Notes under the pieces: generated by a model
The model's input: only the letters and a program-made list of their open reading frames with translations
Database searches by the model: none
Told to the model about the DNA's origin: nothing
Shown here: positions 1-36,992 of the stretch, piece after piece
Numbering within the stretch: position 1 is the first letter of the stretch
Layout of the letters: each line of letters opens with the position of its first letter
Translations under genes and position numbers: made by a program
Virus genome (UHGV): UHGV-0136957
Source: a virus
DNA: 36,992 bases
Direction: 5' to 3' (one strand)

Positions 1-116
1 TTTTACCATTATCGTTCGGGGTATTTTTACCATTATCGTTCGGGGTATTTTTACCCTTATCGTTCGGGGTATTTTTACCCTTATCGTTCGGGGTATTTTT
101 ACCCTTATCGCAAGCC
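1..116. repeat. 24-bp direct tandem array (about 4.7 units of tatttttacc[a/c]ttatcgttcgggg); the same array closes the window end; candidate iterons lying inside the rep coding region
   Basis: Read directly: units at 1-21 (partial), 22-45, 46-69, 70-93, 94-116 (degenerate). Two unit variants (ccatt / ccctt). Confidence 0.9.
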
Positions 117-469
117 TTATCAAATACCGATTTTTCCACTATTTCGCCTAGTCGCTCATAGTCGATTTTATAGTATTTTTTGTTGTCAAGCCCAACGCCT
201 TTTACCCCATCGTCTAGGATTTTTTCAGCTTTAAGCTCGCGCATAAACTTCTTAACAACCTTATCGCAAAAGCCCGTTTTTTCTTGTAGGGTTTCAAGTG
301 TAGCAAAAAAGCGTTCATTGCCCTGCTTGCGTGAAAAATCGTCTATATCAGCCAAAATGCTAATAAAAACTGCTTTTGAAACGCCAAAAGCCTTAATGCT
401 ATCTTTGCCAACGATGAGAAAGCCCGCGCCTGATTGTGATTTTCCATATTTTGTAAGTAAATTTGACAT
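1..469 (-). CDS. Replication-initiator-like protein, 5' part: N-terminal winged-helix/HTH-like domain followed by octapeptide repeats (KNTPND[K/N]G) encoded by the 24-bp array; runs off the window start
   Basis: AGGAGG at 475-480, 5-nt spacer, ATG at 467-469. My translation reads MSNLLTKYGKSQSGAGFLIVGKDSIKAFGVSKAVFISILADIDDFSRKQGNERFFATLETLQEKTGF..., and stays open to position 1. It is missing from the ORF track because it has no stop within the window. Function is inferred from domain architecture and the adjacent DnaC-like gene. Confidence 0.55.
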   Translation of the reverse strand, partial: MSNLLTKYGKSQSGAGFLIVGKDSIKAFGVSKAVFISILADIDDFSRKQGNERFFATLETLQEKTGFCDKVVKKFMRELKAEKILDDGVKGVGLDNKKYYKIDYERLGEIVEKSVFDKACDKGKNTPNDKGKNTPNDKGKNTPNDNGKNTPNDNGK

Positions 470-473
470 TTAT

Positions 474-666
474 ACCTCCTAGTCAAAGAAAAATACTTAA
501 AAAGGGGCTTGTAGCGACTGACTAGGAGGCTTTGAAAGCCCCTATTTAAGCATTTTTACACAAACGGAGACTCTTATGAACTCTTGCAGGAGGTGAGCCC
601 CCGTTTGTGTAAAAGTAAAAACTCTTTTTCAAAGCACTAAAACCCCCAACCGCAAGGGTTGGGGTA
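474..666 (-). promoter_or_regulatory. Structured rep leader with three elements: a GC hairpin (644-664); a terminator-like hairpin (503-543, followed by a U-tract) whose loop carries an anti-SD; and an 11-nt perfect complement between anti-SD (519-529) and SD (475-485)
   Basis: Read directly; see the finding on the rep leader. Confidence 0.45.
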
Positions 667-701
667 AAAGGTTAATCAATGAAAAAGGTAAAAACGAACG
701 A

Positions 702-712
702 ATTATAACATA
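702..712 (-). promoter_or_regulatory. Extended -10 promoter (TGtTATAAT) directed toward the rep leader
   Basis: Minus-sense ttatgTTATAATtcgttcg. Confidence 0.45.
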
Positions 713-756
713 AAAACCTTAAAATTTTTCTTAAAGTATGAATTTTTTTTAAATAC

Positions 757-785
757 CATCATAAAAGGGGCGCAAAGCCCCTATT
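757..785 (-). terminator. Intrinsic terminator ending the late operon (stem aggggc/gcccct, loop, then a U-tract)
   Basis: Minus-sense aggggctttgcgcccct followed by tttatgatgg; begins 4 nt after the fibre stop. Confidence 0.55.
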
Positions 786-1769
786 TTACTCTATTTTTTT
801 AAAGTAGATTTTAATGTAAGCCTTTGTATCTGCTTGAAAATCAAAGGGTGTAATCGTGTAAGTGTTATTTTTTAGAGTTTCGTTTGTGCTAAAAGCCATT
901 GTAAATTCCCAACTTGTAGAGCTTTCGCCCGTTTTTTTCGAGCCTGTGTAGGTTACGCTGGGCTTTTCGGTTGTGGGTAAGGCTAAAAACTGCGTATCCT
1001 CAATAGCTAACATATCAAGCGCGTTTGAGCTTTGGTAAATTTCGCCATTTTCACACTTAATTTCAAACACAAACTTATTTTTTACCCCGTCCGCCACTTG
1101 TATGTCCTCTGTGGGTAGGGACACGCTTAAAGAACCGCTAGCCCCGCTTGGTATTGTAAGCCTTTCTACATATTCAAGGCGTGGCGTGTTTTGAAGTATA
1201 AAATTCCGCACCCATTCAGCATTTACAAGTTCCTTGCCGCTCGCGCTAGGCAAAGGCGTGGGAATAAGCATTGTCCCGCTGTCCGTTTGCAAAATAGGCA
1301 TTTCGTTTAAATCCTTATCCCCTATAAGCACGCTTTGGGCTGTGATTGTCCCACCCAAAATTTCGCCCTTGTTAATCGTGGCGTTTTCAGCGTTTAGGTT
1401 AGTAATGCTTAAATCTGTAATTGTGGCTGTGTTTGCTGTGAGATTTTGGGCGCTTGCGGTTGTAATCTCGGCGGTTGTAATCTCGGCGGTTGTAATAATG
1501 GCGTTTTCGGCTTTAAAAAAAGCTGTATAAAGGTAGGTTTTAAAATCTAAAATTTTTTTTGAAATCATATAAAAAATTTGATTGAAAATTTGCCTTGTGA
1601 TATACAAACCGCCTTCTTTTTTGTCTATGTTATAGCGCGCGCCAAAGCCATCCGCCCAATTCACTTCCCCGTCTGTTTGCGAAGTTAAGTGTAAATTAAA
1701 TTTATCGCCGTTATTTGCAAAGGGTGATGAAAAAAGTTCATCAGGGGCTTGCGGTTCTTGTATAGCCAT
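786..1769 (-). CDS. Tail fibre protein (second, paralogous fibre) with a 15-bp tandem repeat (AEITT)x3
   Basis: Paralogous N-terminus and shared GKELVNAEWV motif; 15-bp repeat gcggttgtaatctcg at 1456-1500. Confidence 0.55.
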   Translation of the reverse strand: MAIQEPQAPDELFSSPFANNGDKFNLHLTSQTDGEVNWADGFGARYNIDKKEGGLYITRQIFNQIFYMISKKILDFKTYLYTAFFKAENAIITTAEITTAEITTASAQNLTANTATITDLSITNLNAENATINKGEILGGTITAQSVLIGDKDLNEMPILQTDSGTMLIPTPLPSASGKELVNAEWVRNFILQNTPRLEYVERLTIPSGASGSLSVSLPTEDIQVADGVKNKFVFEIKCENGEIYQSSNALDMLAIEDTQFLALPTTEKPSVTYTGSKKTGESSTSWEFTMAFSTNETLKNNTYTITPFDFQADTKAYIKIYFKKIE

Positions 1770-1823
1770 TTTTAGCTCCTTATTTTTGTAAAATTATAGC
1801 AAATTTTAGCATATTTTTTTGAT

Positions 1824-1865
1824 ATTCAACCACAATCCCCTACGAAAAAATACGCGGGTTGAAGT
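1824..1865. repeat. Inverted repeat L of the tail-fibre invertible segment (42 bp, with a 20-bp perfect core attcaaccacaatcccctac)
   Basis: Its reverse complement occurs at 2527-2568, with 2 mismatches outside the core. Confidence 0.85.
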
Positions 1866-2164
1866 GGATAAAGTTTAAAACATCCTATGATTTTTTTTGC
1901 GAAGACTTTTATTTGGGATGTGAGTGCAGCACTTTTGCTGATTTTGATTTAAATTTTAAAGAAATAGAATTGTCCGCAGGTGGTTCGTGGTTGTATAAAA
2001 ATAGTGGATATTTGGGGAATATGAGTGGCGAATGTTATGATGTGAGTGGTTTGTGTAAATGCTATGTGTCCTATAATTTTATTTTACAATATGATAAACA
2101 AAGCGAAAAATTGACAAGCAATATCAGTTCTACACAAACTTTAATTTTTTCAAATAAAAACTAA
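1866..2164 (+). CDS. Silent alternative tail-fibre C-terminal cassette (Cys-rich, about 100 aa), currently in inverted orientation
   Basis: Read on the plus strand in frame through IR-L it gives STTIPYEKIRGLKW-IKFKTSYDFFCEDFYLGCECSTF..., which matches the constant/variable junction of the expressed fibre. Track ORF 1859..2164 with a TTG pseudo-start. Stops abut at 2164/2165. Confidence 0.6.
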
Positions 2165-3193
2165 CTATTTATTAAAAAATACAACCGTAGGATTTACAAC
2201 ACACATTCCTACTGTATCACACTCACCAGAACAAACAGCACCTTCTATCTCAATTTCTAAGTGAATACCTTTTTCAGTTCTTTCGCTCATTATTAAATAT
2301 TTGCCAAAGAAGCAACCCCAGCAATCGCTACTCATAGAAACGCAATCCACCCTTATTGTTTCACCAGCTTTAAATTCTAAATTTGATCTATTATAATGTG
2401 TAGCCACAGGCAAAAAATCAACGGAACCATATGCTTGATAGCAACTAGATATACCCGCTAATTCGAATAGCCCTGTTTGACAGCTAGGCGAACCAGTATG
2501 AACACAATAGCTCTCAATAGCTAAATACTTCAACCCGCGTATTTTATTGTAGGGGATTGTGGTTGAATTTCCATTAAATGTATGAATATAAGGGCTAGGG
2601 GCTATCCCGTAATTAGCAATCACCCACTCCGCATTTACAAGCTCTTTGCCTGCCGCATCATTCGGGGGCGTATTGTTAAGCACGCTTTGGCTTGTTGTAG
2701 GGCTTAAAATGATATTAACGCTTTTGGCTTTGTCCGCTATGGTTAAAGTATCAATCCCGCTTATAACGCCCGCATTTTGCGTTAAATCCGTGATAATTGT
2801 TTTTTCACTCGGTTTTATAAGCTCTTTTGTAAAATCCACGATTTTAGCTTTTTTTGCGTTTAAATTTTGCATTGTAAGTTGTGGCGTTTCTAAAAAAGAA
2901 ATATCGTTATTTTTGATTTTAGCCTTATCAGCTTTCAAAAAACGAACTCTTAAATCTTTTTCAACTTGCAAAATTTTACCGCTCAAAGGCTGGACTATGC
3001 CCGCGAATGTCTGTCGTATCATATTTAAGCCGTTTTCTTTGACGGGTATGCGTGAAAATCGTTTTGTAAAGCCCCCAAGCCACGAAAGGCTTTCGTCTGA
3101 TTGCAAATCATTAGGCACTTTTTTAACTTCGCCACTTTTGGCAAATTCATCAGTAAAGATTTTTTCAGGCGGTGTTGGCTCTTTTAAAGGCAT
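2165..3193 (-). CDS. Tail fibre protein: a constant N-terminal ~214 aa plus an invertible-cassette-encoded, Cys-rich C-terminal ~128 aa
   Basis: N-terminus is a paralogue of ORF 786..1769 and shares the GKELVNAEWV motif with it. IR-R (2527-2568) lies inside the coding sequence. Confidence 0.6.
   Translation of the reverse strand: MPLKEPTPPEKIFTDEFAKSGEVKKVPNDLQSDESLSWLGGFTKRFSRIPVKENGLNMIRQTFAGIVQPLSGKILQVEKDLRVRFLKADKAKIKNNDISFLETPQLTMQNLNAKKAKIVDFTKELIKPSEKTIITDLTQNAGVISGIDTLTIADKAKSVNIILSPTTSQSVLNNTPPNDAAGKELVNAEWVIANYGIAPSPYIHTFNGNSTTIPYNKIRGLKYLAIESYCVHTGSPSCQTGLFELAGISSCYQAYGSVDFLPVATHYNRSNLEFKAGETIRVDCVSMSSDCWGCFFGKYLIMSERTEKGIHLEIEIEGAVCSGECDTVGMCVVNPTVVFFNK
2527..2568. repeat. Inverted repeat R of the tail-fibre invertible segment
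   Basis: Reverse complement of 1824-1865; it encodes NSTTIPYNKIRGLKY within fibre gene 2165..3193. Confidence 0.85.
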
Positions 3194-3658: not shown

Positions 3659-3684
3659 AAAGCCTCCTTTAAAAATTTTGAAAA

Positions 3685-3695
3685 ATTATAACATA
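3685..3695 (-). promoter_or_regulatory. Late promoter, extended -10 (TGtTATAAT) plus an AGGAGG RBS for the fibre operon
   Basis: Minus-sense ttatgTTATAATttttcaaaatttttaaAGGAGGctttATG. Confidence 0.5.
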
Positions 3696-7314: not shown

Positions 7315-8187
7315 TTAAACTTTTTGCAAATTCATTTCAGTAACCCACTCGGCTGATTGATTGCCCCCGCGATGTTTACAATCAATCACCCTATAAACCG
7401 CGTTATATTGTGTAATTTTTTGACTTTTTAAGCGCACAAAGCCCCCAGCCCTTAATGCTGGGTTAAGAAGTGTTGTAACCTTAACTCCGCTTTGTATAAG
7501 CGTGGGTATGCCAACCATTCCGCCATCCTCATCAATTTGTATAATGTTATTTGCGGGCGTATCAATCGGCGTTACATTAAGCGTTTTTTCATCGTTTTCA
7601 ATCCACACATTTAAATCATTTTCAAACATTTGCCTAAAATTGCTTAAAAGTTGTAAGGGTGAGCCTAAAAAACTGAATGCGCTTTGTTTTAGCTCTTTTA
7701 TTTTGCTGTCCCATTGTAAAGTAAGCCCGTTCTCTTTCGCAACTTGCTCGGCGATTTGCTTGTTTGAGACATTATTTTCGAAAGCTATTTGAATTTTATT
7801 GTTTTGCAAATTATTTGAAACCAAACTTTGAACCTTTAAATTCACGCGCCTGTCCGCGCCGTTAAAGTTGCTATCCACCGCGATGATATTGCCCGCTAAA
7901 ATTATACCTAAATCGTTGTTATAACCCACTTCTAGCTGAACGCTGTTTTTTTTCATAACGGGATTATTTTTGTTTGGTAAAATTTGGGCTGAACTCGCTA
8001 AATAATACATATCATCATCGCTTAAATTGTAAATTGTAATGTTACCTTGACAAAAACTTTTAGAATGACACGAATTTATCGCCTCAAACTCGATTTTAAG
8101 CCCACGCGTATTTTCGTCCTCTTTAAAAATCTTTTTTGTGCTCTCAACTTCGATTAAAAGTTTATAACAACGCTTAATAAACGCCAC
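7315..8187 (-). CDS. Baseplate hub / gpD-like tail protein (Mu P-like)
   Basis: Size and position in the P2/Mu baseplate order. Confidence 0.4.
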   Translation of the reverse strand: MAFIKRCYKLLIEVESTKKIFKEDENTRGLKIEFEAINSCHSKSFCQGNITIYNLSDDDMYYLASSAQILPNKNNPVMKKNSVQLEVGYNNDLGIILAGNIIAVDSNFNGADRRVNLKVQSLVSNNLQNNKIQIAFENNVSNKQIAEQVAKENGLTLQWDSKIKELKQSAFSFLGSPLQLLSNFRQMFENDLNVWIENDEKTLNVTPIDTPANNIIQIDEDGGMVGIPTLIQSGVKVTTLLNPALRAGGFVRLKSQKITQYNAVYRVIDCKHRGGNQSAEWVTEMNLQKV

Positions 8188-8512
8188 AATAAAGCCTTAT
8201 TTTCACGCCTAAATCATCAAATGAAACGCTTTCGCCTTGTATATCGCTTTGATTTACAAAAAAAAGGCAAATGTCCTCAATCTTTGAATATAAGAGTAAA
8301 TTAGTATTGTATATTTCAATCGGCGCATTTTGAACTACGCAAAGCTCATTCTCAAACACTGAAATTCGTGTCCTGTCATTAAAAAAAGTTTGAAATTTAA
8401 ACTTAAAATTATGCGTCCCGCAAGTCGCGTTAAATTCATAGTTTGGGTTTGCTTGCAAGGGTATTTCCATAATGCTTTTAAACTCGCTAATTTTTGCTAA
8501 AATTTTTCTCAT
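8174..8512 (-). CDS. Tail/baseplate assembly protein (unassigned)
   Basis: Track ORF. Confidence 0.35.
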   Translation of the reverse strand: MRKILAKISEFKSIMEIPLQANPNYEFNATCGTHNFKFKFQTFFNDRTRISVFENELCVVQNAPIEIYNTNLLLYSKIEDICLFFVNQSDIQGESVSFDDLGVKIRLYCGVY

Positions 8513-9051
8513 TAAAAAAATCCTTTGTGAAACACACTGCGCGGATTTGAAATCGGCGAAGTCGCCTTATTACCTAGCGATTTAGCAGCACCATACGCGC
8601 CCTTACTCGCGCCCGCGCCCGCAGAGAACGAATTTACTAAAATAACCTCTTGCAACGACACATTATAGTGCGTTGCGCCTACCATTTGCGAATTTGTATC
8701 TCTCGCCCAGCTTACAACCTTTAAGTTTTCGTAAGTTTTTGAGCCTAAACTCGATAAACTTACAAAGTTGTTTTTGTTATTAACAAGCTCGTTTAAAGCG
8801 TATTCAAAGCTCACATAATCGCCACCCTCCACAAAACACCTTAAATTCACTTTTAAAGGCATTTTGTAGATTGTATCGCCCTTATAAGAACCGCTCTCTA
8901 CGGGGTATTGTGGAGCATTGAAATCTTGCGTTTCGCTAATTTCGCTTACAATGCAGGGGAGTTTACCCCAATCAGTAACCTTAATTTCAATGCGATTAAA
9001 CCAGCTTAAAAGATTACCCGCTAAATTTCCTACATTTGAAAGGCTTATCAT
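8512..9051 (-). CDS. Tail/baseplate assembly protein (unassigned)
   Basis: Track ORF; position after the tape measure gene. Confidence 0.35.
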   Translation of the reverse strand: MISLSNVGNLAGNLLSWFNRIEIKVTDWGKLPCIVSEISETQDFNAPQYPVESGSYKGDTIYKMPLKVNLRCFVEGGDYVSFEYALNELVNNKNNFVSLSSLGSKTYENLKVVSWARDTNSQMVGATHYNVSLQEVILVNSFSAGAGASKGAYGAAKSLGNKATSPISNPRSVFHKGFF

Positions 9052-9053
9052 TT

Positions 9054-10724
9054 TTAATTATTCCCCACTTGCTGAATTTGCGCTGAAACGCTTTGGATTG
9101 CGCTTGTTGTAGCTGTTGCAACCTGCATAGGCGTTGCGCTTGTGATATTTTGATTAACATTATTGTTAATTGTTGTTGTCCGTCCCCCGTAGTTGTTTGT
9201 AACTGCGCTACTCATAGGCACTTGTAAGGCTTGCGGTTGCGCTTGTGGCGTTTCATTTTCGCTAAATCCAAAAAATGAACTTATGGAATTTCCAAAGCTC
9301 TTAATTTTTTCAGTAATACCGCTAAACGCGTTTGTAATTTTTTCAATCATACGCGTGAAAAAATCGCCTATTGCGCTAAAAACGCGCAAGGCATCATCTT
9401 TAAACTTATCCCAAGTCAAGCTCTCAATGTATGCTTTAACTTTTTTAATGCCGTTTATTAAAAATTCAAGTCCTTTACCAAAAGCCCTAAAAACCGCGCC
9501 CGCCACGCCGTCCATTTGTCCTAAACTATCAAACCAGCTTTTTAAGCCCTCCGCCAAAGTTTGCAAGGCGTCCATAGGTAAAGTAAAAATGCTTTTGAGT
9601 GTATCGCCAAAGGCTCGCCAGCTAGGATTTTTAATTAAAGCCCAAATTTTGCTAAAAACATTCATAATTCCCATTATAACGGGCTTTAAAGGGTCAATCA
9701 CCTTTTTTAAGTGCGGGAATTTCTTAACAAGCTCACCCGTTGCACTGTCCCAACCCATAAAATAATAATATAAATCCTCAAAAATCCCCGCAACGACCGC
9801 AACCGCCACGCCTATCGCTATAAAAGGCGCAAAGGCTGTGAGTGTTGCTATCGCCATTTTTGCTAAAATCGCTAAAATCGGCATTAAAGCGATTGTAATG
9901 CCTATGAAAAAGCCCTTTACAAAAATTTCGTTTTTGCGTAAAATATCCACAAAGAAAATCATTTTATCTACAAGCCCGCGCAAAAAGGGCATAATCCCCC
10001 GTATCATCTCACGCGCAAGGGCTGAAAAAATGTCCTTTAAATCTAACATAGCCTCGTTAAAATCTTTGGTGAGCTTAATATCCTCATCCGTTTCAACGCC
10101 TAACGCTTTTTGTTTTTGAATTTGCCTTTCAAGCTCTGCGCCCCCGTCTATTAAGGCTCTTTGCATAGCCTCATCTAGCCCAAGTTGCGACATTATAGCG
10201 GTTTTTGTTTCAAGTGAAAACCCTTTCATTTGCTTTGCTAAGCTTAAAAGGGCTTTATCGGCTTTTTGATAAGCTGAAATTTGAATTCCGTATTTTCTTG
10301 CTATATCTACAAGCGCGCCCCCGTTAAATTTCGCTTCTTGCAAGTGCGAATTCATAGATTTTAACGCCCCGATTGTGCTTTCAAGGTTGCCCCCAAAGCG
10401 TGTCATCGCTCGCCCCATTTCTGCAAGGCTTTGAGTTTCAAGCCCTAAAAGCTGATTAGCATTTATAAGCTGTGTATTAAAAGCCGTATAGTTTTCTAGC
10501 GTGGCTTTAAAAGCTGACATTGTAACATAAGCAAGGGCAAGGCGTTTAAGTGTGTTTGCTAGCCCTTGCATTGAAATATCAGCGCGTTTTATGTTTTTTT
10601 CGGTATTATCTGCTATTTCTTTTGTGCTTTTTTGGGCTTGTCGCGCTGTGTTTTTTAGCTCTTTTTGCGCGTCTTTGGCGTTTATGCTTATATCAATTGA
10701 AAGCTCGGTAAGTTTTTCAGCCAC
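9054..10724 (-). CDS. Tail tape measure protein
   Basis: 556 aa, alpha-helical, with a central hydrophobic segment FFIGITIALMPILAILAKMAIATLTAF...; lies downstream of the frameshifted chaperone. Confidence 0.7.
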   Translation of the reverse strand: MAEKLTELSIDISINAKDAQKELKNTARQAQKSTKEIADNTEKNIKRADISMQGLANTLKRLALAYVTMSAFKATLENYTAFNTQLINANQLLGLETQSLAEMGRAMTRFGGNLESTIGALKSMNSHLQEAKFNGGALVDIARKYGIQISAYQKADKALLSLAKQMKGFSLETKTAIMSQLGLDEAMQRALIDGGAELERQIQKQKALGVETDEDIKLTKDFNEAMLDLKDIFSALAREMIRGIMPFLRGLVDKMIFFVDILRKNEIFVKGFFIGITIALMPILAILAKMAIATLTAFAPFIAIGVAVAVVAGIFEDLYYYFMGWDSATGELVKKFPHLKKVIDPLKPVIMGIMNVFSKIWALIKNPSWRAFGDTLKSIFTLPMDALQTLAEGLKSWFDSLGQMDGVAGAVFRAFGKGLEFLINGIKKVKAYIESLTWDKFKDDALRVFSAIGDFFTRMIEKITNAFSGITEKIKSFGNSISSFFGFSENETPQAQPQALQVPMSSAVTNNYGGRTTTINNNVNQNITSATPMQVATATTSAIQSVSAQIQQVGNN

Positions 10725-18426: not shown

Positions 18427-18459
18427 CCCCTTGCGCTTTGCGTAAGGGGTTTATTTTTT
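18427..18459 (+). terminator. Plus-strand intrinsic terminator (10-bp stem ccccttgcgc/gcgtaagggg, loop ttt, then tttatttttt)
   Basis: Read directly. On the minus strand the hairpin is followed by A-rich sequence, so it works only in the plus (antisense) direction. Confidence 0.6.
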
Positions 18460-19344
18460 CTCAACTAATACGAAATAATCACCCGCGAGCGCGTCCTTTA
18501 CCTTTTTAAGCTCTTGGGTAGGTAAAACAAAAAGGGCTTTTTGTGAACATCTACAATTCACGCGGTCGCCACAATGTCCCCTATTTCCGTAGCTGTCAAT
18601 AATTGCGGTCGGTTCGCTATATTTATAAATTCGCCCGTCAAGGTGTATGTGTCCGCCCGCGCCCGTTGAAACTCGCTCGTCCTTACTTGTAAGCCACACA
18701 TAATACTCAAAACCCAACTGCTCGGCTCTCGCTTGCTGATAGTCGTTTGCAGCCTTTGCGGTTTGGTCTCTTGCGATTAAACGCGCTCTTTTTTCACTTA
18801 TGCCCTGATATTGTCTAGTTAGTTTAAAAATCGCCTCTTCGTCAAAATTTAAAATGCCGTTTAAAAACCCCTGTCGGTATCGCTCCATAATATCGCTAGG
18901 GATTGATTGTATAAGGGCTAAATTTCGTTCGTAAATCGCTGACATACTCTTTTTAACGCTCATTGTTTTAATTGCAAGAGCTGAAACACTCGCGTCTTTT
19001 AAAGGCGTGTTTTTTAGCTGATTTGCTAAATTTATATCAATATACCCAGCGGTTTGATTAACGAGCTTTCTACTCAAAACTTTTGCACGCTCGTTGATTT
19101 TCTTTTGCCAATCTCTTAAAAGGGCGTTTAGCTCAAAAGCAAGCTGTTTGGGCGTGTTTTTATCCAAATTTTGCTTAATTTTCGCAAGTCCCCAAAAAGT
19201 AACGCTCTTATTTATAGCTTTTGAAATTTCACCCAACTGCTTTTTAAGGCTGTTTTCAATAGCTTTGCTTGCCAAAATGGCTTTAAGCGTTATCGGTTTG
19301 GCTTGTGATTTGCGTTTGCTCGTTTTCTTGTCCGTTTTTGCCAT
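18451..19344 (-). CDS. Mu F-like head morphogenesis protein
   Basis: Size 297 aa; follows the portal, overlapping it by 62 nt; C-terminal Cys/His cluster HCGDRVNCRC. Confidence 0.5.
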   Translation of the reverse strand: MAKTDKKTSKRKSQAKPITLKAILASKAIENSLKKQLGEISKAINKSVTFWGLAKIKQNLDKNTPKQLAFELNALLRDWQKKINERAKVLSRKLVNQTAGYIDINLANQLKNTPLKDASVSALAIKTMSVKKSMSAIYERNLALIQSIPSDIMERYRQGFLNGILNFDEEAIFKLTRQYQGISEKRARLIARDQTAKAANDYQQARAEQLGFEYYVWLTSKDERVSTGAGGHIHLDGRIYKYSEPTAIIDSYGNRGHCGDRVNCRCSQKALFVLPTQELKKVKDALAGDYFVLVEKK

Positions 19345-20767
19345 AGTTTAAATCGCTTTCTAGCCCAAAATCATCCACGCTCTCATCGAACTCTTCGCCT
19401 TTGTCAATGATTTTCTTACCTTGCAAGTAGTTAAATCCTTGCTCTTGCGTAATAACGCCACTTTGGATTAAATTATTAACCACTTGGCTTTCGGTAGCGT
19501 TAATTTGCGACTGATTTAACGCGTTTTCAGTGTTAAGGTTCTCAAACTCATATTTTGGGTATAAATCAAATCCTAATTCAAGTGAAAAAATGTGTAAAAA
19601 ATTCTCTATAATCGGTTTAACAATGCTATTTTGATAAGACATAACCTCATCATAGTAGCTTTTTAAGTCAAAATCGCCCGTTGCATTAAAACCGCTAGGC
19701 GTTAAACCTAGCAATTTGACAGCGGGCATTCTTGCAGAAACGGCGATATTTTCTTGCATTTGCGCTAATAGTTTGTCTAGGTTTGTTAAATTTGTGATAC
19801 TTTCTACATATTCTTCATCGCTCGTAAGTAAAAGCGTGCCTAAATTGTTGCGTAGTTTGTTAATCGCGCCCACTCTATCCATTGCCTCCTGCGCCGATAT
19901 TTTACTCAAATCGGTTTTAAGGATTGTAGTGCGAAATCTTGTGAAAATGTCGCCTAGTGCTTGCCTTGCGCCGTCCGCTATCTTTACAAAATCTTTCATA
20001 AACTGAGGCAGTGAAATGCCGAAGTAGTTGTAAAGCGGTTTAAGCATATCGGGCGCATTAAAGAAGCTCAAACTCACAAGCCTTGTTTTATCTACAACGC
20101 CCGCACCGCTAATATACCATTTGCTAGGTTGCATAAAATCGGCATTCAGCGGATTTGATGAATTCACATCGACAGCCCCACACAAATAAGGCTCAATCAC
20201 CCTTAAATTTGTGATTGTTTCGCTTGTGATGAAATCTTTTTTAAAGTAAATAGGGTCAGCAAGCGTGCTGTTTTGCCCTATATTCGTGTCAATGTAAATC
20301 AAAGCACCGCCATAAGTAAGAGTTGTCATCACAGCTTTATGTAGAGTATCAAAAAACTTCAATTTATCAATGCGTTTTTCAAGTTTTTTGATGAATTCGG
20401 TTTCAAAGTCTGGATTTTGGTTTTCAAGCACGATTTTTCCGCCCTTTCTAAAAATCTCATTTGCGATTTTAGAAATGGCATTGTTTATAATGCTGTCATT
20501 TGCCAAAAAAGCGCATTCAGCGTAAGAAATACGCTTGTTAATCCACATTGTATATTGTGTGATGGAGTTGCCTACGCCGATGTTAGCGATAGGATTAACC
20601 CACTCGTCCATGAAACGCTTTTGCCATTTATCAAAGCACGCATTCACTGCGCTATCGCTAAATTTGATAGGTGAGCTAATGTCTAGCGAAATCTCGCCTT
20701 TTGCTTTGTCGCTTATGCCTTTCCAATCGGTTGTTTGTTTTGGCTTACTAGGGTAAAATTTACTCAT
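19283..20767 (-). CDS. Portal protein (Mu gp29 / DUF935-like)
   Basis: Size 494 aa; lies between terL and the F-like head gene, in Mu-like head gene order. Confidence 0.6.
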   Translation of the reverse strand: MSKFYPSKPKQTTDWKGISDKAKGEISLDISSPIKFSDSAVNACFDKWQKRFMDEWVNPIANIGVGNSITQYTMWINKRISYAECAFLANDSIINNAISKIANEIFRKGGKIVLENQNPDFETEFIKKLEKRIDKLKFFDTLHKAVMTTLTYGGALIYIDTNIGQNSTLADPIYFKKDFITSETITNLRVIEPYLCGAVDVNSSNPLNADFMQPSKWYISGAGVVDKTRLVSLSFFNAPDMLKPLYNYFGISLPQFMKDFVKIADGARQALGDIFTRFRTTILKTDLSKISAQEAMDRVGAINKLRNNLGTLLLTSDEEYVESITNLTNLDKLLAQMQENIAVSARMPAVKLLGLTPSGFNATGDFDLKSYYDEVMSYQNSIVKPIIENFLHIFSLELGFDLYPKYEFENLNTENALNQSQINATESQVVNNLIQSGVITQEQGFNYLQGKKIIDKGEEFDESVDDFGLESDLNYGKNGQENEQTQITSQTDNA

Positions 20768-23299: not shown

Positions 23300-24613
23300 T
23301 TACAAAAAATCAGCCCACGAAACTGAACGCTTTAATAAAAAATCCAAAGCGTAGTAAGTGCAATCTACCATATCATCGTGTAAATGCTGTTCGTCTGCCC
23401 TAAATGCTTTTAATTCACTCAAATACCCACTTACCCAAGAGTTAAGCGGATTTTTAGACATAGGCAGTTTAAGCCTTTGAAACTCGCTTAAAACTGATGA
23501 AACCCTTGTAAATTTATCTTTTTTGGGCGTAACTTCCCTTAAAGGCAAATGCGTTAAGCGTTTTAGCTCTTGCAGTAGTGAAATACCGCTTGCCTTTTTT
23601 TCTATGATAAAATCCGTAGGGCTTAAATGGTAGGTATCCACAGCCCATTCATAAGCGTTAATAGCTTGCGTTTGTAACTCATTAAAATCCCAACGCCCAC
23701 GAAAAATACGCGTTAAGTGAATATCGTTGCCCTTTACACAAAAAACGCCTATCACTGAAAAATCAGCGTTTTCGTTTTTGCTAAAAGCCGTGTCAGCCGT
23801 GATTATAATACGCTCATACCCTTGCGGTTCATTGTCGTTAAAATATCCTATCACGGCGGTATTTATAACATTTCCGTCCTCCACGCCCAAAGGCTCGCCT
23901 AAATGCACCCAGCCAAACATTTGCGGGGTCATAGTTTGAAAATCGCTATTTATGTCTGCCAAAATTGTTTCATTTAAAAAAGGATTGTCGCCACAAACCC
24001 AGCGTTTAAGCTCTTTATTATACTTGCTAGCTACAATTTTCTTAACAAAGCAACGCTCATCTTTATTGTTTATCGCCTTTTGATATAAAAAATCATCGTC
24101 TTTTTCGGGGTTAAAGCTAAAAATCAGCTTTGAGTTTAAAGCCCGTATCGTCGGTTTTAGCTTATTATAGCTAAATTCAGTTAAAAAGTTCGCTTCGTCA
24201 ATCCAGCAAAAATTTATATCTTTAAGCCCTTTTAAGCTATCTACTACATTATCATTTATGCCCGCAAAGATGAATTCACTTTTATTAAATTCTAAAACTA
24301 TCCTTTGCGCCTTAAATTTGATGAGTTTTTCATTTTGATAATATTTTTTAATTTCCAAGTCCATTTCGCCTAATTGATACTCAATTTCGTTATTTTCGAA
24401 AAAGTCCTGTATGTCTTTATAAACCGAACTGCGCCCGCTCGTTTGAAACTCTCTTAATACTAAAATCCGTGTTTTCTTTTTAAGTGCTTGATTACCTAGA
24501 AAATCAGCGATTGCGTGATTTTTACCGCCATAGCGTGAGCCATAGTAGATATACTCTCTATAATTTGTTTGCCATAAATCTTTAAAGGCAGGCGCGACTT
24601 GTGTTTTAACCAT
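23300..24613 (-). CDS. Terminase large subunit
   Basis: P-loop-like YYGSRYGGKNHAIADFL, an acidic nuclease region at the C-terminus, and size and position consistent with terL. Confidence 0.7.
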   Translation of the reverse strand: MVKTQVAPAFKDLWQTNYREYIYYGSRYGGKNHAIADFLGNQALKKKTRILVLREFQTSGRSSVYKDIQDFFENNEIEYQLGEMDLEIKKYYQNEKLIKFKAQRIVLEFNKSEFIFAGINDNVVDSLKGLKDINFCWIDEANFLTEFSYNKLKPTIRALNSKLIFSFNPEKDDDFLYQKAINNKDERCFVKKIVASKYNKELKRWVCGDNPFLNETILADINSDFQTMTPQMFGWVHLGEPLGVEDGNVINTAVIGYFNDNEPQGYERIIITADTAFSKNENADFSVIGVFCVKGNDIHLTRIFRGRWDFNELQTQAINAYEWAVDTYHLSPTDFIIEKKASGISLLQELKRLTHLPLREVTPKKDKFTRVSSVLSEFQRLKLPMSKNPLNSWVSGYLSELKAFRADEQHLHDDMVDCTYYALDFLLKRSVSWADFL

Positions 24614-26228: not shown

Positions 26229-27620
26229 TTATCTTTTTTTTGTGCGCGAATTACCCTTATTCTTTGTTTTATGCCAAATCGGCGTTAAACCGCTAAATTC
26301 AGCAAAACCATCGCTTTCGCTTATAAAAACATTAAACCCTTGCTCTTTTAGCTTTTTAGCCCACTCTACAAAGGCTTTGTGGTCAAAACCGCTCTTATGA
26401 TAGCCAAAAGCGATATTTTGTTTTTGAGTTCGCAAGTATGGCGGGTCGGCATAAATGATAATTTCGCTTTTATCGCACCCTAGATTTTCGCAAATTTGCG
26501 TAAAATCAAAATCAGCGTAACTCTTGTTTGAAATTTCCAAATTTAAAAAAGCGGGTTGCTGTTCGAGCTGTTGGAGCTGTTCGAGCCGTTGGAGCTGTTC
26601 GAGCCGTTGGAGCTGTTCGAGCCGTTGGAGCTGTTCGAGCTGTTGGGTTTGCGAAAATGCTCTTAAATTGTTAAAAGCCATTATAGTCTCACCGCCACGC
26701 TTTTGTTTATATTTTTTAGCTGTGGCGACCAAATCAGGGCGTTTAAGGCTTATAATTTTGCATAATTTGCTATTTGAAAACTCTTTTAAAGCCCTTGCGC
26801 TAGTCTCTTGCTTAAATTCATATTTCCAATTTTTCTGCAAGCGAGCTATACACAAGGCTTCAAGTGTTATTACAAAAGAGCTAAAAAACGCTCTGCGCTC
26901 AATCCAAGAGCCAAAGTCCCCAAACATAAAATTAGTTAAAACAAATGCGCTAAATTCTCTTTCTTCGCTGTCTAAATTGTCATAATGCTTTGTAAATTCC
27001 TTATTAAAAATCTCAACACACCATTTTAAACCCTCGCCCCTTTTTTCGAATTCATCTTTTAAAAAAGGGTAAAAAATCATATTATGTCCTGCGTGTTTCC
27101 ATTGCCTAGCCCCAAAGGCGTATGATGCGTTTATGCCTTTCGCCCCAAAGCTATAAATAAAAGATTTTATGATTTCAGCGCCTTTTAAATGTTCTTTATT
27201 TTCATATTTTTCTTTTATGTTAAAAAATTCGTTTTTATCAACCCAAAAATACATTTCTTTATCAAAAATTCCCCATTCATTGCGCGGGTGAGCTATGCAG
27301 TCCTTTATATACTCAAACATTAAGCATAAATCAGTTTTAAGCTCATTGTAATACACTTTTAAGCCACTTGCCAACGCCTGAACGCTCATCGCACCGCCAC
27401 CGCCAAATAAATCAAAAAAATACTTTGCGTTTGGACTATGCTTATGTATCTCTTTTAAGAGTGCACCCGCTATTATTTCTTTGCTACCCGTATAAATCAA
27501 GCAGGTTTTAAGCCGTTTTTCGCACGGCGTCCAGCTTGAAATTTTAGCTTTTTTGCCAGAATCAAACTCACTTTTAAAAATAGGCTCATTTATAAGCATA
27601 TCATCACTAAAAAGGCTCAT
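26229..27620 (-). CDS. DNA adenine methyltransferase, Dam/D12 class (alpha architecture), with an internal LEQLQR hexapeptide repeat array
   Basis: FDLFGGGGAMS (motif I) is N-terminal and YADPPYL (motif IV) is C-terminal. WAGGK-like YTGSKEIIAG. Confidence 0.85.
   Translation of the reverse strand: MSLFSDDMLINEPIFKSEFDSGKKAKISSWTPCEKRLKTCLIYTGSKEIIAGALLKEIHKHSPNAKYFFDLFGGGGAMSVQALASGLKVYYNELKTDLCLMFEYIKDCIAHPRNEWGIFDKEMYFWVDKNEFFNIKEKYENKEHLKGAEIIKSFIYSFGAKGINASYAFGARQWKHAGHNMIFYPFLKDEFEKRGEGLKWCVEIFNKEFTKHYDNLDSEEREFSAFVLTNFMFGDFGSWIERRAFFSSFVITLEALCIARLQKNWKYEFKQETSARALKEFSNSKLCKIISLKRPDLVATAKKYKQKRGGETIMAFNNLRAFSQTQQLEQLQRLEQLQRLEQLQRLEQLQQLEQQPAFLNLEISNKSYADFDFTQICENLGCDKSEIIIYADPPYLRTQKQNIAFGYHKSGFDHKAFVEWAKKLKEQGFNVFISESDGFAEFSGLTPIWHKTKNKGNSRTKKR
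26558..26647. repeat. 18-bp in-frame tandem repeat x5 (gctgttcgagc[c/t]gttgga) inside the Dam-like methylase gene
   Basis: Read directly; encodes (LEQLQR)n on the minus strand. Confidence 0.9.
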
Positions 27621-32657: not shown

Positions 32658-32677
32658 TTCGTCTCCTTTTTCATAAA

Positions 32678-33055: not shown

Positions 33056-33389
33056 TTAAGCTCCTTTCGATTTCTGCTATCTCTTTGCGTAGCTCCGCAA
33101 GCCTTTGCAACTTAAATTCCTTGTTTTTAAGCTCGCAAATTTCGTTTTCAAGCCTTGTTAATTCAAGCTCAAAGTCATTTTTCAGCTTTGAAATTTCCAA
33201 GTCCGCGCTTTCGCATTGAGAGCGTATTTGTTGCAAGCACTTTAACGCTTGAAAGCTAGCCTCAGTTTCGATTTTTCCAAAGCGCAAAATCAAACCAAGC
33301 TCGCGCCTTATGCACGAAAGCGTGATTTGAATTTCGCTCATACTACTTAAAAATCGCTCTTTCATTTCACACCTTAACAAAAATTTCAT
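33048..33389 (-). CDS. Hypothetical coiled-coil protein
   Basis: Track ORF; heptad-like KLQRLAELRKEIAEIERSL. Confidence 0.4.
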   Translation of the reverse strand: MKFLLRCEMKERFLSSMSEIQITLSCIRRELGLILRFGKIETEASFQALKCLQQIRSQCESADLEISKLKNDFELELTRLENEICELKNKEFKLQRLAELRKEIAEIERSLNV

Positions 33390-33480
33390 TTGTAGAAAAT
33401 GCGAGAATTATCGCGTTTCCCAAGTCTCAACAAAAGTTTCATTTGTAGAAAATGCGCGAATTATCGCGTTTTCCAAGCTA
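33376..33480. repeat. 52-bp tandem duplication (2 copies, about 90% identical) spanning the 3' end of gene 33408..33701 and the start of gene 33048..33389
   Basis: Copy 1 is 33376-33427 and copy 2 is 33429-33480 (aacaaaa[a/g]tttcatttgtagaaaatgcg[a/c]gaattatcgcgttt[c/t]ccaag...). Confidence 0.85.
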
Positions 33481-33701
33481 TCGCCACTTTCGCTTTTAAT
33501 TTTAATGTTTAAAAATTCGCCATTTTCAAACACAAATTCAACTCTGCCCGAGATTTTATCAAAATTAACGCGCTCAACGCTTTTAAAGACCGTTAAAATC
33601 TCGTTTTTTCGCTTTATGATAAACATTTTGCACATCCTATTTTCAAGGCGTAGCGCGTTTTTTTGTTCGCGCTCGCGCGTAGTGCGGGTAAAAATACCCA
33701 A
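33408..33701 (-). CDS. Hypothetical protein
   Basis: Track ORF; its 3' end lies within a 52-bp tandem duplication. Confidence 0.4.
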   Translation of the reverse strand: MGIFTRTTREREQKNALRLENRMCKMFIIKRKNEILTVFKSVERVNFDKISGRVEFVFENGEFLNIKIKSESGDSLENAIIRAFSTNETFVETWETR

Positions 33702-33807
33702 CTTTGAATTTTGTTAATTTGGATTTTTTTACCAAAAAAACAAAACTCACACACTTTTTGAATTCTCTTTAAGTGGAGTTTAAGCCCTTTGTGCTGTATA
33801 ATCATCG

Positions 33808-34206: not shown

Positions 34207-34215
34207 ACACCCCCT

Positions 34216-34494: not shown

Positions 34495-34525
34495 AATTTC
34501 CTCCTTACTCAAAAAACTTGCGAAA

Positions 34526-34554
34526 ATTATAACAAAAAAAAGTTTTTTTGTCAA
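34526..34554 (-). promoter_or_regulatory. Consensus sigma70-type early promoter TTGACA-17-TATAAT
   Basis: Minus-sense cTTGACAaaaaaacttttttttgtTATAATtttcgcaag...AAGGAGgaaattATG. Confidence 0.6.
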
Positions 34555-34622
34555 GTGTTTTTTAGATAAATTTTTGAATTTTTTTGCAAATTTTTTAAAA
34601 ATGCCTTAAAAATAGGGCTTTG

Positions 34623-35165
34623 TTAGCATTCTAAAATTCGCAAATAGCAGTTTTTTATATCGATTTTTTCCAAAAGTTCGTAAAATTCGCGCACGCACTC
34701 GACTGAATTGCTTATCCACCCTTGTTTTTCGTTGCACGATTTTCCCAAAAGTATGCACCCCGCGGTATCCTGTGGGTAGTTTCCTATATGTATGAGTATT
34801 CTGCGGGTGCGAAATGCGGGCATAATCCAATCACAATTAAGCCAAATCGCTGTATTTCGTGCGCCACGCTTAAATTTAGGGTATTTTTTAGTCAAATTTC
34901 CATTTCGTGCGCTATGCGTCCATTCCAAAGCATAATCACGGCTCACTATGCGCTTGTCCTGCCCTGATATATCAGTGCTTGCGCCCCCGTTTTCAAGTGT
35001 AAAGCACTTAAAAAGCACTTTGTCCTTGTCTTTCGTATCTAAAACGCTTAATTTGCCAAGCGTTGCGTTTTCTGCTTTTGCTGTGCTGTTGGGTTTTGCG
35101 ACATTTGCTACTTCTTTAAAGCGTTGTAGAATGATTTTGTAGCGTTTTTCGTCTATTTTTGACAT
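34623..35165 (-). CDS. Hypothetical protein, possibly L,D-transpeptidase-like (YkuD-type H...G...T.GC motif); could be a cell-wall enzyme
   Basis: Track ORF; AAGGA RBS plus ATG; motif ILIHIGNYPQDTAGCILLG resembles the YkuD catalytic His/Cys region. Weak. Confidence 0.3.
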   Translation of the reverse strand: MSKIDEKRYKIILQRFKEVANVAKPNSTAKAENATLGKLSVLDTKDKDKVLFKCFTLENGGASTDISGQDKRIVSRDYALEWTHSARNGNLTKKYPKFKRGARNTAIWLNCDWIMPAFRTRRILIHIGNYPQDTAGCILLGKSCNEKQGWISNSVECVREFYELLEKIDIKNCYLRILEC

Positions 35166-35171
35166 TTTAAA

Positions 35172-35199
35172 TCCTTAAAAAATGGGGGCTTGCGCCCCC
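35172..35199 (-). terminator. Intrinsic terminator (stem gggggc/gccccc, loop ttgc, then a U-tract on the minus strand)
   Basis: Read directly: minus-sense gggggcgcaagccccc followed by attttttaagg. Confidence 0.6.
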
Positions 35200-35242
35200 A
35201 CAAATTTTTCACAAAGGAGACCAGCTGAACGCCAGCACCAAA

Positions 35243-35251
35243 ATTATAGCA
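35243..35251 (-). promoter_or_regulatory. Extended -10 promoter (TGcTATAAT) upstream of the terminator hairpin and gene 34623..35165
   Basis: Minus-sense tttgcTATAATtttgg. Confidence 0.35.
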
Positions 35252-35265
35252 AATTTTTTAAAAAT

Positions 35266-35778
35266 TTACTCAACAAATTTTATAACCTCAACGCGTGGCG
35301 CGTAAGAGTTGGGTAGTTCGCCCGTCTCGCGACAATGTCGCATTAAAATCGCGGCTCGGCTTGTGTAGCGGTAGTAACTATCGCTAGGGTTGTCAAGGCT
35401 CTGCACGCGTTTTTTCCAACAAAGCGCATCAAAGGCTCGGGCGTAGTCGCTCCACTCTCGCGGGCTGTCAAGTCCGCTAATCTCACAAAAGCCCGCAAAT
35501 ACCCAACGCCCAGCGTTATTTTGCTTGTAGCGAAAGGCTTTAAATGAGATATAGCTTGTCTCTTTATCCAAAAAATGCCGTTCAGCACTTAAAAACTCAA
35601 AGGCTGTGCCTTTTTTATTGACAAAATAGCACTTAAAAAGTTCGCACCAGCTTGTAGCTGGCGCGGGCAACTCATTTTTAAGTCCCGCTTCGTCTCTACT
35701 CTCTCGGCTTTTGGCTTTCATTTTCTCAAAATAAGCCGTTAAGCTATCTCCGCTGTCATTTTTTTGTAAAATCATCAC
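35266..35778 (-). CDS. Hypothetical protein, compositionally atypical (GC-rich) ORF co-transcribed with the replication genes
   Basis: Track ORF; ATGA start overlap with the DnaC-like gene; locally about 50% GC versus a 35-40% genome background (judged by eye). Confidence 0.45.
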   Translation of the reverse strand: MMILQKNDSGDSLTAYFEKMKAKSRESRDEAGLKNELPAPATSWCELFKCYFVNKKGTAFEFLSAERHFLDKETSYISFKAFRYKQNNAGRWVFAGFCEISGLDSPREWSDYARAFDALCWKKRVQSLDNPSDSYYRYTSRAAILMRHCRETGELPNSYAPRVEVIKFVE

Positions 35779-36386
35779 TCACCCCTTAAATCCACACCTT
35801 TAATCTGCAAAACCACAACGCCACCGCCTTGTTTTAGGCGACTTACAGCCATCTTGCTTAAAAAATTTAGTAAATTTTTGGGGTTTTCGTTGAAAATTAA
35901 GCACAAAGGCACTAATTTATCATAAGCCGTCATCACTATTTCATTGATAATCTCCCAATCGTCCGCGCTTTGTAGCTGGTGTAGCTCATCGATAATAACG
36001 AATTTGCAGGGCGTGGGCGGTTCATCGTAAAAAATGCTCTCCTTTGCAAAAACGCCCTGCAAGGTTTTGGCGATGTTTTTAAAGTTTCCCTTAAATTCGC
36101 TTACTAACACGCTCGCGCGGTTGTAGTAAATTCGAGCCTCTCCGCCCGTCTGCTCTTTTAAACGCATAGCTAGTTCAAAAGCTAGGTAAGTCTTGCCTCT
36201 GCCCGTTTCACCACACAAAAGCAGATTTTTTTTGCCCTGCATTGCGCTTAAAGCGTTGTTTAAATCCACGAACGCACCCTTATCGTGCATAAGCACGCCA
36301 TTTTCCCTATCGTTTAAAAAACGCTCGCTTATGCCGTCTAAACGCGCAGTTTTTAAAACGCGGTCTTTATAGTTAGTTGTTTCCAT
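35775..36386 (-). CDS. AAA+ ATPase, DnaC/IstB-like helicase loader
   Basis: Walker A LLLCGETGRGKTYLA and Walker B KFVIIDELHQL. It lies immediately downstream of the initiator-like gene and overlaps it by 14 nt. Confidence 0.7.
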   Translation of the reverse strand: METTNYKDRVLKTARLDGISERFLNDRENGVLMHDKGAFVDLNNALSAMQGKKNLLLCGETGRGKTYLAFELAMRLKEQTGGEARIYYNRASVLVSEFKGNFKNIAKTLQGVFAKESIFYDEPPTPCKFVIIDELHQLQSADDWEIINEIVMTAYDKLVPLCLIFNENPKNLLNFLSKMAVSRLKQGGGVVVLQIKGVDLRGE

Positions 36387-36992
36387 CGAAATCCTCCGTA
36401 TTTGATTTTTGAAAATTCAAGGCTTTTAAATCGTCATCGCTGTAATATCTATCGTTCAAATCGGTTGTAACATACTTTTTAGCAAGGTCGCCCCTTGCCT
36501 TATTGCGCTCGCGGGCGTAGGCAGAGTTTTCAAAGTTAATTTTTCGTGGCTCGAATAAGCCCTGCCATCCGTTTGTAATACTATTTTCTATGCTGTCATA
36601 AGCCCCTATGCCTAGCTTAATGAGCTTATTGATGATTTTAACTGCGCCCGTTTCAGTTATCGGCTTTTTAATCTCATCTCTATGTTTTGCGAATTCCAAA
36701 ACATCAGCCAGCGTGAAATGGTGTATTTTGTCTTTGTGAGCGTTAAAAGCGTTTGTAATGTTTAAAGCACTATTAGCTTTTTTAGCTTTTGGCTTTTTAA
36801 CACTTAAATCGCTTTGTGTTTGTGATGAATTCTCAAAAGCAGAATTTTCACACTCAAAAAAAGTGCTTGCGCTTTGTTCTTTTGGTATTGTTTCTTTTGT
36901 TTTTGTATTCTTTTGATTTTGTAATATAGGTAGTTTAGGGGTATTTTTACCCTTATCGTTCGGGGTATTTTTACCATTATCGTTCGGGGTAT
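36373..36992 (-). CDS. Replication-initiator-like protein, 3' part (C-terminal domain), in frame with the 5' part across the window junction
   Basis: Track ORF 36373..36699 begins at an internal TTG. The same frame stays open upstream through 36992 (...KGKNTPKLPILQNQKNTKTKETIPKEQSASTFFECENS...HHFTLADVLEFAKHRDEIKK...). It joins the frame of the ORF at 1..469 exactly. Confidence 0.55.
   Translation of the reverse strand, partial: TPNDNGKNTPNDKGKNTPKLPILQNQKNTKTKETIPKEQSASTFFECENSAFENSSQTQSDLSVKKPKAKKANSALNITNAFNAHKDKIHHFTLADVLEFAKHRDEIKKPITETGAVKIINKLIKLGIGAYDSIENSITNGWQGLFEPRKINFENSAYARERNKARGDLAKKYVTTDLNDRYYSDDDLKALNFQKSNTEDFDGNN
36928..36992. repeat. Same 24-bp tandem array (about 2.5 units) as at positions 1-116; the sequence is seamless if the ends are joined
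   Basis: Read directly: ...ggggtatttttacccttatcgttcggggtatttttaccattatcgttcggggtat, continuing into ttttaccattatcg... at position 1. Confidence 0.9.

Follow-up and report, generated by a model that had tools for sequence, protein, structure and literature searches.

The viral DNA catalogued as UHGV-0136957, a stretch of 36,992 nt that is referred to below as the window (the whole stretch analysed, position 1 being its first letter), is best explained as a truncated copy of a circular genome assembly from a DA10-like phage. According to this explanation, which we consider likely as a whole, the circle was opened within an array of 24-bp repeats that would serve as the iterons of a phage replication origin, and the phage probably packages its DNA by the headful mechanism. 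The array is located in the middle of a gene for a putative replication initiator, directly upstream of a gene for a putative helicase loader. An assembler that opened a circle of 36,968 bp inside this array would leave repeats at both window ends, with 24 nt shared between them.

On the plus strand, the 24-bp tandem unit reads GGGGTATTTTTACC[A/C]TTATCGTTC. Tandem Repeats Finder (TRF) detected 4.6 copies at positions 1-110 (98% matches), with a partial last unit extending to ~116, and a further 2.3 copies of the same unit at 36938-36992. The repeat register was unbroken when position 36992 was joined to position 1. The core 14-mer of the unit occurred seven times at no more than two mismatches, as compared to 0.28 expected occurrences, and none of 100 shuffles reached seven; chance cannot explain the array at the window ends. 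Furthermore, the minus-strand frame was open across the junction, from 469 to 1 and from 36992 to 36373, which amounts to 1089 nt or 362 amino acids (aa) plus a stop codon. These results bore out an earlier note on this DNA, which had claimed that the same 24-bp repeat occupies both ends in seamless phase and that a minus-strand open reading frame (ORF) crosses the junction without a frame change. The note was also right to expect a single joined protein, but not in its size of about 363 aa, since a plain join gives 362 aa and the true circle 354 aa. Likewise, the join is seamless in phase but duplicates one 24-nt unit. Specifically, the last 24 nt of the window (36969-36992) match positions 1-24 exactly, and since they are the same bases, a plain join counts one unit twice and arrives at seven units, one in excess. 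They represent a residual assembly overlap that should be counted once on closing the circle. The true circle comprises 36,968 bp with six repeat units and encodes a protein of 354 aa (positions 8950-10014 of contig L011, described below).

A complete circular contig is expected to begin and end with the same sequence, repeated exactly and directly over 20 bp or more, and such a repeat was present both in the window (24 nt) and in its source contig (55 nt). As the repeated 24-mer is no more than one unit of the tandem array, it is unsafe evidence for closure when taken alone, and independent confirmation was needed. Identical copies of the terminase and loader proteins of the window led to the same phage in public assemblies. 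The source contig, NODE_250_length_37023_cov_29.5 (L013) from the European Nucleotide Archive (ENA) assembly ERZ1749357, was colinear with the window at 100% identity over the 11.2 kb compared. Its 31 bases beyond position 36992 repeat window positions 1-31, giving an exact 55-nt terminal overlap, as is left by a circular path when SPAdes assembles with k=55. The window corresponds to the first 36,992 nt of NODE_250 (36,992 = 289 x 128) and retains 24 of the 55 overlap bases. The confirmation came from a second assembly, ERZ28622153, in which scaffold_295 (37,023 bp; L010 and L011) matched the window at 100.000% identity over two compared stretches of 13.3 kb and 19.8 kb. The first 55 nt of this scaffold equal its last 55 nt, its cut site is located at window positions 26586-26640 inside the 18-bp array of a D12 methyltransferase gene, and it crosses the 36992-to-1 junction of the window uninterrupted. 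Indeed, L011 aligned to the window in two blocks, 9418 to 1 and 36992 to 26586, which share 24 nt. NODE_250 and scaffold_295 both reduce to the same 36,968-bp circle, and this circle lacks any repeated 55-mer. In addition, the 10.7-kb contig L001 (2.2x coverage) crosses the junction at 99.97-99.99% identity (99.98% in the closure check), with only two repeat units.

Because the second assembly, cut elsewhere, reads through the window junction, the circular map is proven. The two 37,023-bp records were not counted as fully independent samples, since they possibly share a cohort, but they are still independent linearisations. We therefore conclude that the window is a complete, circularly assembled genome with a circular gene order, as the earlier note had proposed for a single replicon of about 37 kb. 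Host flanking sequence, named in advance as the observation that would speak against this, was present at neither end; the ends overlap and join each other. Other assemblies were interrupted at the same place: contigs L014 and L017 begin inside the 24-bp array, L016 begins in the 15-bp repeats that another rep allele carries at this point of the linker, and in L004, a scaffold of 36,096 bp from a related phage, the homologous array is interrupted by 100 Ns. The window ends lie in the array because short-read assembly breaks there, and not at a biological terminus. The array was assembled with two copies in the low-coverage contig L001, five in L002 and L005, and six in L011, and the true copy number may differ from the six of the k=55 circle. 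Four more distant relatives, L005, L006, L007 and L008, carry in one piece the tail-fibre genes, a gap of ~200-500 bp, the initiator gene, the loader gene, a 169/170-aa gene where present, and a DUF5675 gene; the initiators of those relatives were 46-85% identical in the alignment.

The gene restored at the junction should be annotated as one 354-aa replication initiator. Its 5′ part, with the ATG at position 469, occupies positions 1-469 on the minus strand and includes the predicted N-terminal winged-helix domain (aa 21-118, window 116-409), while the 3′ part (36373-36992, minus strand) encodes the end of the linker and the C-terminal domain. The joined protein gave a single alignment, spanning the junction, to PHROG 678 'replication initiation O-like' (aa 45-333, E 7e-21). 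An AlphaFold (AF2) model was built from 25 homologues, the first sequence of which (P0001) is the window protein apart from the repeat number. In this model, the N-domain was a confident winged helix with predicted local distance difference test (pLDDT) values of 72-91, comprising a helix at aa 58-65, a recognition helix at aa 69-81 (DKVVKKFMRELKA; window 227-265, minus strand) and a wing. The linker (aa 119-189), which carries the repeats, was modelled as disordered, and the C-domain as helical with weaker support. The adjacent gene (35775-36386, minus strand) overlaps the initiator stop codon and encodes an AAA+ DnaC/IstB-like helicase loader, with matches to Pfam AAA_22 and IstB_IS21 and to PHROG 50 and 3277 'DnaC-like helicase loader'.

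Several features of the repeats point to a function at the DNA level. The coding-strand unit, GAT AA[G/T] GGT AAA AAT ACC CCG AAC, specifies the peptide repeat NTPND[K/N]GK, and the six units correspond to aa 121-168, between the modelled N-domain and C-domain. Each unit contains a dyad, GGGTA-AAAA-TACCC, the arms of which match at five of five positions in four of the six units and at four of five in the other two. The codons that build the dyad are uncommon in the genome: ACC accounts for 11% of Thr codons, AAG for 24% of Lys, AGG for 18% of Arg and GGT for 23% of Gly, and the outer G of the dyad is the third position of AAG or AGG. The putative iterons at 1-116 (minus strand) form the promoter-proximal part of the array, and those at 36938-36992 (minus strand, delimited by TRF) its distal part, including the last iteron before an AT-rich stretch. 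This stretch (36868-36937, minus strand), in which a 16-bp unit occurs about three times, lies directly 3′ of the array, constitutes the guanine-plus-cytosine (GC) minimum of the initiator gene (0.17-0.25), and is a candidate DNA-unwinding element.

Comparison with relatives revealed three classes of dyad. Class 1, GGGTA-AAAA-TACCC, is found in the window phage, L001, L002, L005 and L009, where the recognition helix starts with [CS]DK[VT]. Class 2, GTATA-AAAA-TATAC, occurs in L007 and L008 together with [SN]HLT, and class 3, GGCTA-AAAA-TAGCC, in L020 together with AEMT. All three classes keep complementarity at five of five arm positions through changes on both arms, and these changes alter the encoded residues from Gly-Lys-Asn-Thr to Tyr-Lys-Asn-Ile or Ala-Lys-Asn-Ser. 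The class 3 dyad was predicted from the protein repeat RAKNSP before its DNA was seen. The start of the recognition helix thus co-varies with the dyad class, which is indirect evidence, drawn from sequence comparison, for the predicted binding of the iterons by the N-domain. In line with this, we take the array to be the iterons of a phage origin, presumably bound by the N-domain of the initiator that it helps to encode, and the peptide repeat would be mostly a by-product of the DNA sites.

The initiators P0007-P0010, P0012 and P0013 (from L006, L012, L015 and L016) have an unrelated N-domain and, where the window has its array, different or no evident repeats, together with a near-identical C-domain. 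Indeed, the C-domain of the window initiator is ~90% identical in initiators with a different N-domain. The rep genes with the unrelated N-domain are located at 9094-10014 in L012, 1398-2375 in L015, 1-665 in L016 and 10001-10900 in L006; the loader protein is identical in L012, L015 and L016, and the loader-side region of L006 is ~90% identical in DNA. A faint HTH_36 match was found in the L006 and L012 initiators, and 15-bp repeats in L006 and L016. The exchange point lies in the linker, making this a case of module swapping in the lambdoid style.

In lambda, too, the origin is found halfway along gene O, as a set of iterons accompanied by an AT-rich tract, and in Stx phages the O protein is 13 aa longer owing to two additional iterons (PMC7466680). 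The likeness to the lambdoid arrangement extends to iterons that form dyads around a central A-tract and that, within the initiator ORF, separate the sequence for the N-terminal DNA-binding domain from that for the C-terminal domain. It also includes the AT-rich tract next to these iterons, their variable number, which changes the length of the protein, and the helicase-loader gene that comes next. The two differ in that the window has a 24-bp unit with a 5-4-5 dyad as opposed to ~19 bp in lambda, and an AAA+ DnaC/IstB-like loader as opposed to lambda P. The window thus shows what characterises a lambda-O-type origin in its layout, namely iterons within the initiator ORF between two domains, internal dyads and an AT-rich flank, but not homology at the sequence level: searches of Pfam (Phage_rep_O or an equivalent), NCBIfam and PDB sequences gave no such match. 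The array therefore seems to resemble an O-type origin in its workings, while membership in the O protein family is not supported by family matches. By analogy, a dimer of the N-terminal winged-helix domain would bind the 5-4-5 dyad, this binding would lead to melting of the AT-rich stretch beside the array, and the DnaC-like loader from the next gene would be recruited by the C-terminal domain, as at lambda ori.

Winged-helix domains were also among the best structural matches to the N-domain, specifically the RepA proteins of pSK41/pTZ2162 (4pql, 5kbj and 4pt7) and the N-domain of DnaD (2v79). RepA_N plasmids carry iterons within the rep coding region. The similarity of the window N-domain to RepA_N and DnaD was weak, however (E 0.06-0.3, template modelling (TM) scores of 0.43-0.47 on the target), with no match in sequence, and the window element is a phage whereas the carriers of RepA_N are plasmids. 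Scans of IMG/VR and GTDB genomes with the initiator, both single-protein and alignment-based, returned no relatives; the two initiator scans of genome contigs gave no relative that would point to a host, nor did the contig with P0026, the only relative listed from an NCBI source, and tblastn against phages and plasmids gave no match. A 61-aa stretch of the initiator 3′ part was 36% identical to the RepO-like protein of Campylobacter phage DA10. The gene for this protein (L019 30835-31710, minus strand) holds a pair of TAGGTAAAAATTTACCTA dyads at a distance of 45 bp and, after them, a very AT-rich run, and judging from this arrangement the dyad region is probably the DA10 origin. In the passages considered, the DA10 paper notes poly-A tracts alone (PMC7291426).

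The relation to DA10 is also evident from the remainder of the genome, which was assigned by scanning ORFs against Pfam, PHROGs and NCBIfam. Nearly all genes are on the minus strand. In addition to the O-like initiator and the DnaC-like AAA+ loader, the replication genes include SSB and DUF1064, and the recombination genes an ERF recombinase and a PD-(D/E)XK exonuclease. A Bro-N/KilAC antirepressor and two DNA methyltransferases represent regulation and modification, and a holin lysis. Packaging and head formation are represented by TerL (Terminase_3 and Terminase_6C), a portal protein (PF06381), a MuF-like protein (PF04233) and DUF2213, and the tail by a DUF3383 sheath-like protein, baseplate J and tail fibres. 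From the precomputed Pfam names of relatives, a cement protein can be added and a contractile tail of the E217/Pam3 type is indicated; the other tail-module ORFs had only tail-type precomputed Pfam matches in relatives. No integrase, transposase, recombinase of that kind or repressor was detected in any ORF scanned, and searches for tRNA genes and Rfam families found none. By Megablast, the whole window had no match among GenBank phages, and the exact repeat was absent from IMG/VR. The capsid protein is already present in NCBI (DAL49494.1, a Caudoviricetes metagenome-assembled genome). The source is metagenome assemblies, probably of human gut judging by the sample names, and these names, taken by themselves, would fit the human gut cohort of Obregon-Tito 2015.

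By TerL, the nearest cultured phages are the Campylobacter phages DA10 (51% identity over 99%), PC22 and PC11, followed by a Helicobacter prophage (41%). DA10 (MN530981) and the window share a genome with all genes on one strand, a size within 33-38 kb and the lack of an integrase. They also share the module order, which runs from early genes with an antirepressor through Rep, recombination, methylase, terminase, head and contractile tail to tail fibres. Both were assembled as circular or permuted molecules, and in the window as in the DA10-like (CJIE4-related) phages the RepO-like initiator is modular with a swappable N-domain. In the DA10 report, DA10 is described as a circularly permuted 35,379-bp assembly with no read pile-up, no integrase and a modular RepO-like protein, and the DA10-like genomes as spanning 33-38 kb (PMC7291426). 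On the other hand, the GC content of the window is 33-42% as compared to 26-28% in DA10-like phages, nucleotide-level matches were lacking, ERF recombinase takes the place of the RecT of DA10, the N-domains of the two initiators are unrelated, and six 24-bp units contrast with two dyads. Thus, the window has the structural and terminase genes, the colinear one-strand genome and the absence of an integrase that typify the DA10-like group, but neither its GC content of 26-28% nor its C. jejuni/C. coli host was found, the window GC being 0.33-0.42. Together these findings identify the window as a new DA10-like contractile-tailed phage with what appears to be a lambda-type origin inside the initiator gene.

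As for packaging, a circular assembly is compatible with a closed circle, with a permuted headful genome, or with cos ends or short direct terminal repeats (DTRs) elsewhere. The earlier note had seen a fit with headful packaging by Mu-like terminase and head genes in a genome that lacks a transposase. The absence of a transposase was confirmed by our ORF scans, but beyond the MuF domain the Mu-like character found no support: TerL belongs to Terminase_3/6C, the portal to PF06381, and the MuF domain (PF04233), the only Mu-like element found, also occurs in phages of the SPP1 type. No transposase such as the DDE enzyme MuA, which a Mu-like phage has alongside MuB, was encountered, the ends join each other and not variable host DNA, and a Mu-like phage was rejected, as the transposase is missing and the terminase and portal families differ. 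Given these terminase and portal families, the absence of a transposase is what one would expect. TerL was a sub-threshold member of the PBSX family, and its nearest solved structure was Sf6 gp2 (E 3e-16). Sf6 is a headful packager, and this likeness weakly supports headful packaging. Judging by analogy, virions most likely contain linear DNA with terminal redundancy and circular permutation, as proposed for DA10. Conceivably, the genome could instead have fixed cos or short-DTR ends elsewhere, the circular assembly reflecting joined ends or concatemers and the genome not being permuted. Each such end type gives a circular de Bruijn graph, and the DA10 authors note that tagmentation could mask termini (PMC7291426). 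Nevertheless, we consider fixed ends doubtful, no read accumulation having been seen in DA10 (PMC7291426). The placement of TerL in the Terminase_3/PBSX group, with headful Sf6 as its nearest solved relative, argues against them as well.

Because no integrase was found, we also weighed whether the element is kept as a closed circular prophage, that is, a phage-plasmid replicating from the iteron origin. This would explain how a DA10-like phage, from a group reported as temperate, could do without an integrase, and it would be in keeping with the absence of integrase, transposase and recombinase from the ORFs, with a putative iteron-type origin as in theta plasmids, and with the Bro-N/KilAC antirepressor. 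The DA10-like phages lack an integrase as well (PMC7291426). However, no partition, repressor or toxin-antitoxin genes were detected, and a set of 72,556 plasmid records yielded neither a relative of the initiator nor, for TerL, anything closer than hits of 24-28% identity. Moreover, the one-strand gene arrangement resembles that of many virulent phages, and a DA10 relative was reported to be integrated in C. jejuni CJ677CC520 (PMC7291426). On balance we regard a plasmid state as unlikely. It can coexist with headful virions.

Another possibility is that the array is merely a slippage-prone, low-complexity linker without a function at the DNA level. The linker is indeed predicted to be disordered, and the copy number ranges from two to six, or to seven by a plain join. 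In contrast, a mere linker would not account for compensatory changes on both arms in three dyad classes, made through codons that are rare in the genome, nor for the co-variation of these classes with the recognition helix, the pairing of unrelated N-domains with unrelated repeats at the same site, and the AT-rich stretch that came next in each case examined. This makes such a linker distinctly improbable. Finally, that the array marks the real physical ends of a linear genome with short DTRs, as the exact sequence shared by the ends (24 nt for the window and 55 nt for NODE_250) might suggest, can be practically dismissed, since a 55-nt overlap is a SPAdes k-mer signature, the sibling assembly has an equal overlap elsewhere and crosses this array, fixed ends here would divide an initiator gene that relatives at 64-100% DNA identity keep whole in mid-contig, and L011 and L001 already contradict it.

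Several points weigh against our explanation of the window as a circular DA10-like assembly opened in origin iterons. The circle and the array copy number derive from assembled contigs alone, and the two 37,023-bp assemblies may stem from the same cohort or even the same sample, so that their independence is uncertain. The assignment of headful packaging from the terminase reflects a weak similarity. For the initiator, neither Pfam nor NCBIfam gave a match to lambda O or any other initiator family, there was no PDB sequence match, and the fold matches of the N-domain were generic winged-helix proteins, including the N-domains of plasmid RepA and DnaD, none of them significant (E 0.04-0.3). The dyad co-variation comprises three classes, which corresponds to a chance of ~1 in 64 if the changes were independent, and it would also fit a hairpin in RNA or single-stranded DNA. 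The predicted hairpin energies of classes 1, 2 and 3 were -5.8, -1.6 and -9.6 kcal/mol, respectively; judged by energy, an RNA hairpin as the reason for the dyads is possible for classes 1 and 3 and a weak proposition for class 2. Lastly, a lone exact copy of the iteron core, GGGTAAAAATACCC, is present at 33686-33699 on the plus strand, opposite in orientation to the array, in a 182-bp intergenic gap ~3.25 kb downstream of it. This copy is conserved also in phages with another initiator type and other repeats, and the origin model leaves it unexplained. It was considered as a part of the origin and dropped, because it does not track the initiator class.

The other features of the window can be placed around this core. 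The last late gene, encoding a 327-aa tail fibre (786-1769, minus strand), lies directly upstream of the initiator in L001, L004, L005, L008 and L011; L006, L007, L012 and L015 have a different gene of the tail-fibre region in this position. The gap between this gene and the initiator (470-785, minus strand) forms the late-to-early boundary, contains terminator-like hairpins and a very AT-rich patch, and is kept in L001, L005, L006 and L008. Between two tail-fibre genes there is a gap of ~395 bp with only a doubtful plus-strand ORF (window 1859-2164), and scaffold L004 terminates close to the equivalent place, ~820 nt upstream of the gene for its 327-aa tail fibre. Beside the tail-fibre genes of L007, an RVT_1 reverse transcriptase gene (7647-8702, minus strand) is accompanied by a DUF4376 gene (8982-9512); this pair looks like a diversity-generating retroelement and is without a counterpart in the window. 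The large terminase gene (Terminase_3 and Terminase_6C, PBSX-like) is located at 23300-24613, and the portal and MuF-like head-morphogenesis genes, assigned by Pfam, at 18451-20767, both on the minus strand. The D12 methyltransferase gene (26229-27620), in which scaffold_295 was cut, contains an in-frame 18-bp tandem array on the minus strand, GCTGTTCGAGCCGTTGGA, with 4.9 copies at 26558-26646 that encode SNGSNS repeats. Two direct repeats of 52/53 bp (92% identical; 33373-33477) lie across the 3′ end of a small ORF (33408-33626), and the proximal one stops within the short gap that precedes the next gene.

For practical purposes, the window may be taken as a complete genome, with a length of 36,968 bp rather than 36,992 bp. 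It illustrates that a tandem array in a viral contig can give rise to terminal repeats as well as mask them, a plain join adding a false unit in this case. Lambdoid phages showed decades ago that an origin can be embedded in the initiator gene, and the co-variation of dyad class and recognition helix is the only part that a specialist might follow up. As a small data set supplied by nature, in which residues of the recognition helix vary in step with the dyads of the putative origin, it could guide experiments on binding specificity. To the small group of DA10-like phages, the window adds a metagenomic relative of higher GC content. A further idea, to which we assign a low probability, is that this integrase-less DA10-like lineage, with a host probably among the Campylobacterales, persists as a phage-plasmid. 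Its interchangeable pairs of N-domain and iterons, at least three dyad classes plus unrelated types, would then represent incompatibility or replication-specificity groups. If true, this would explain how temperate DA10-like phages manage without an integrase.

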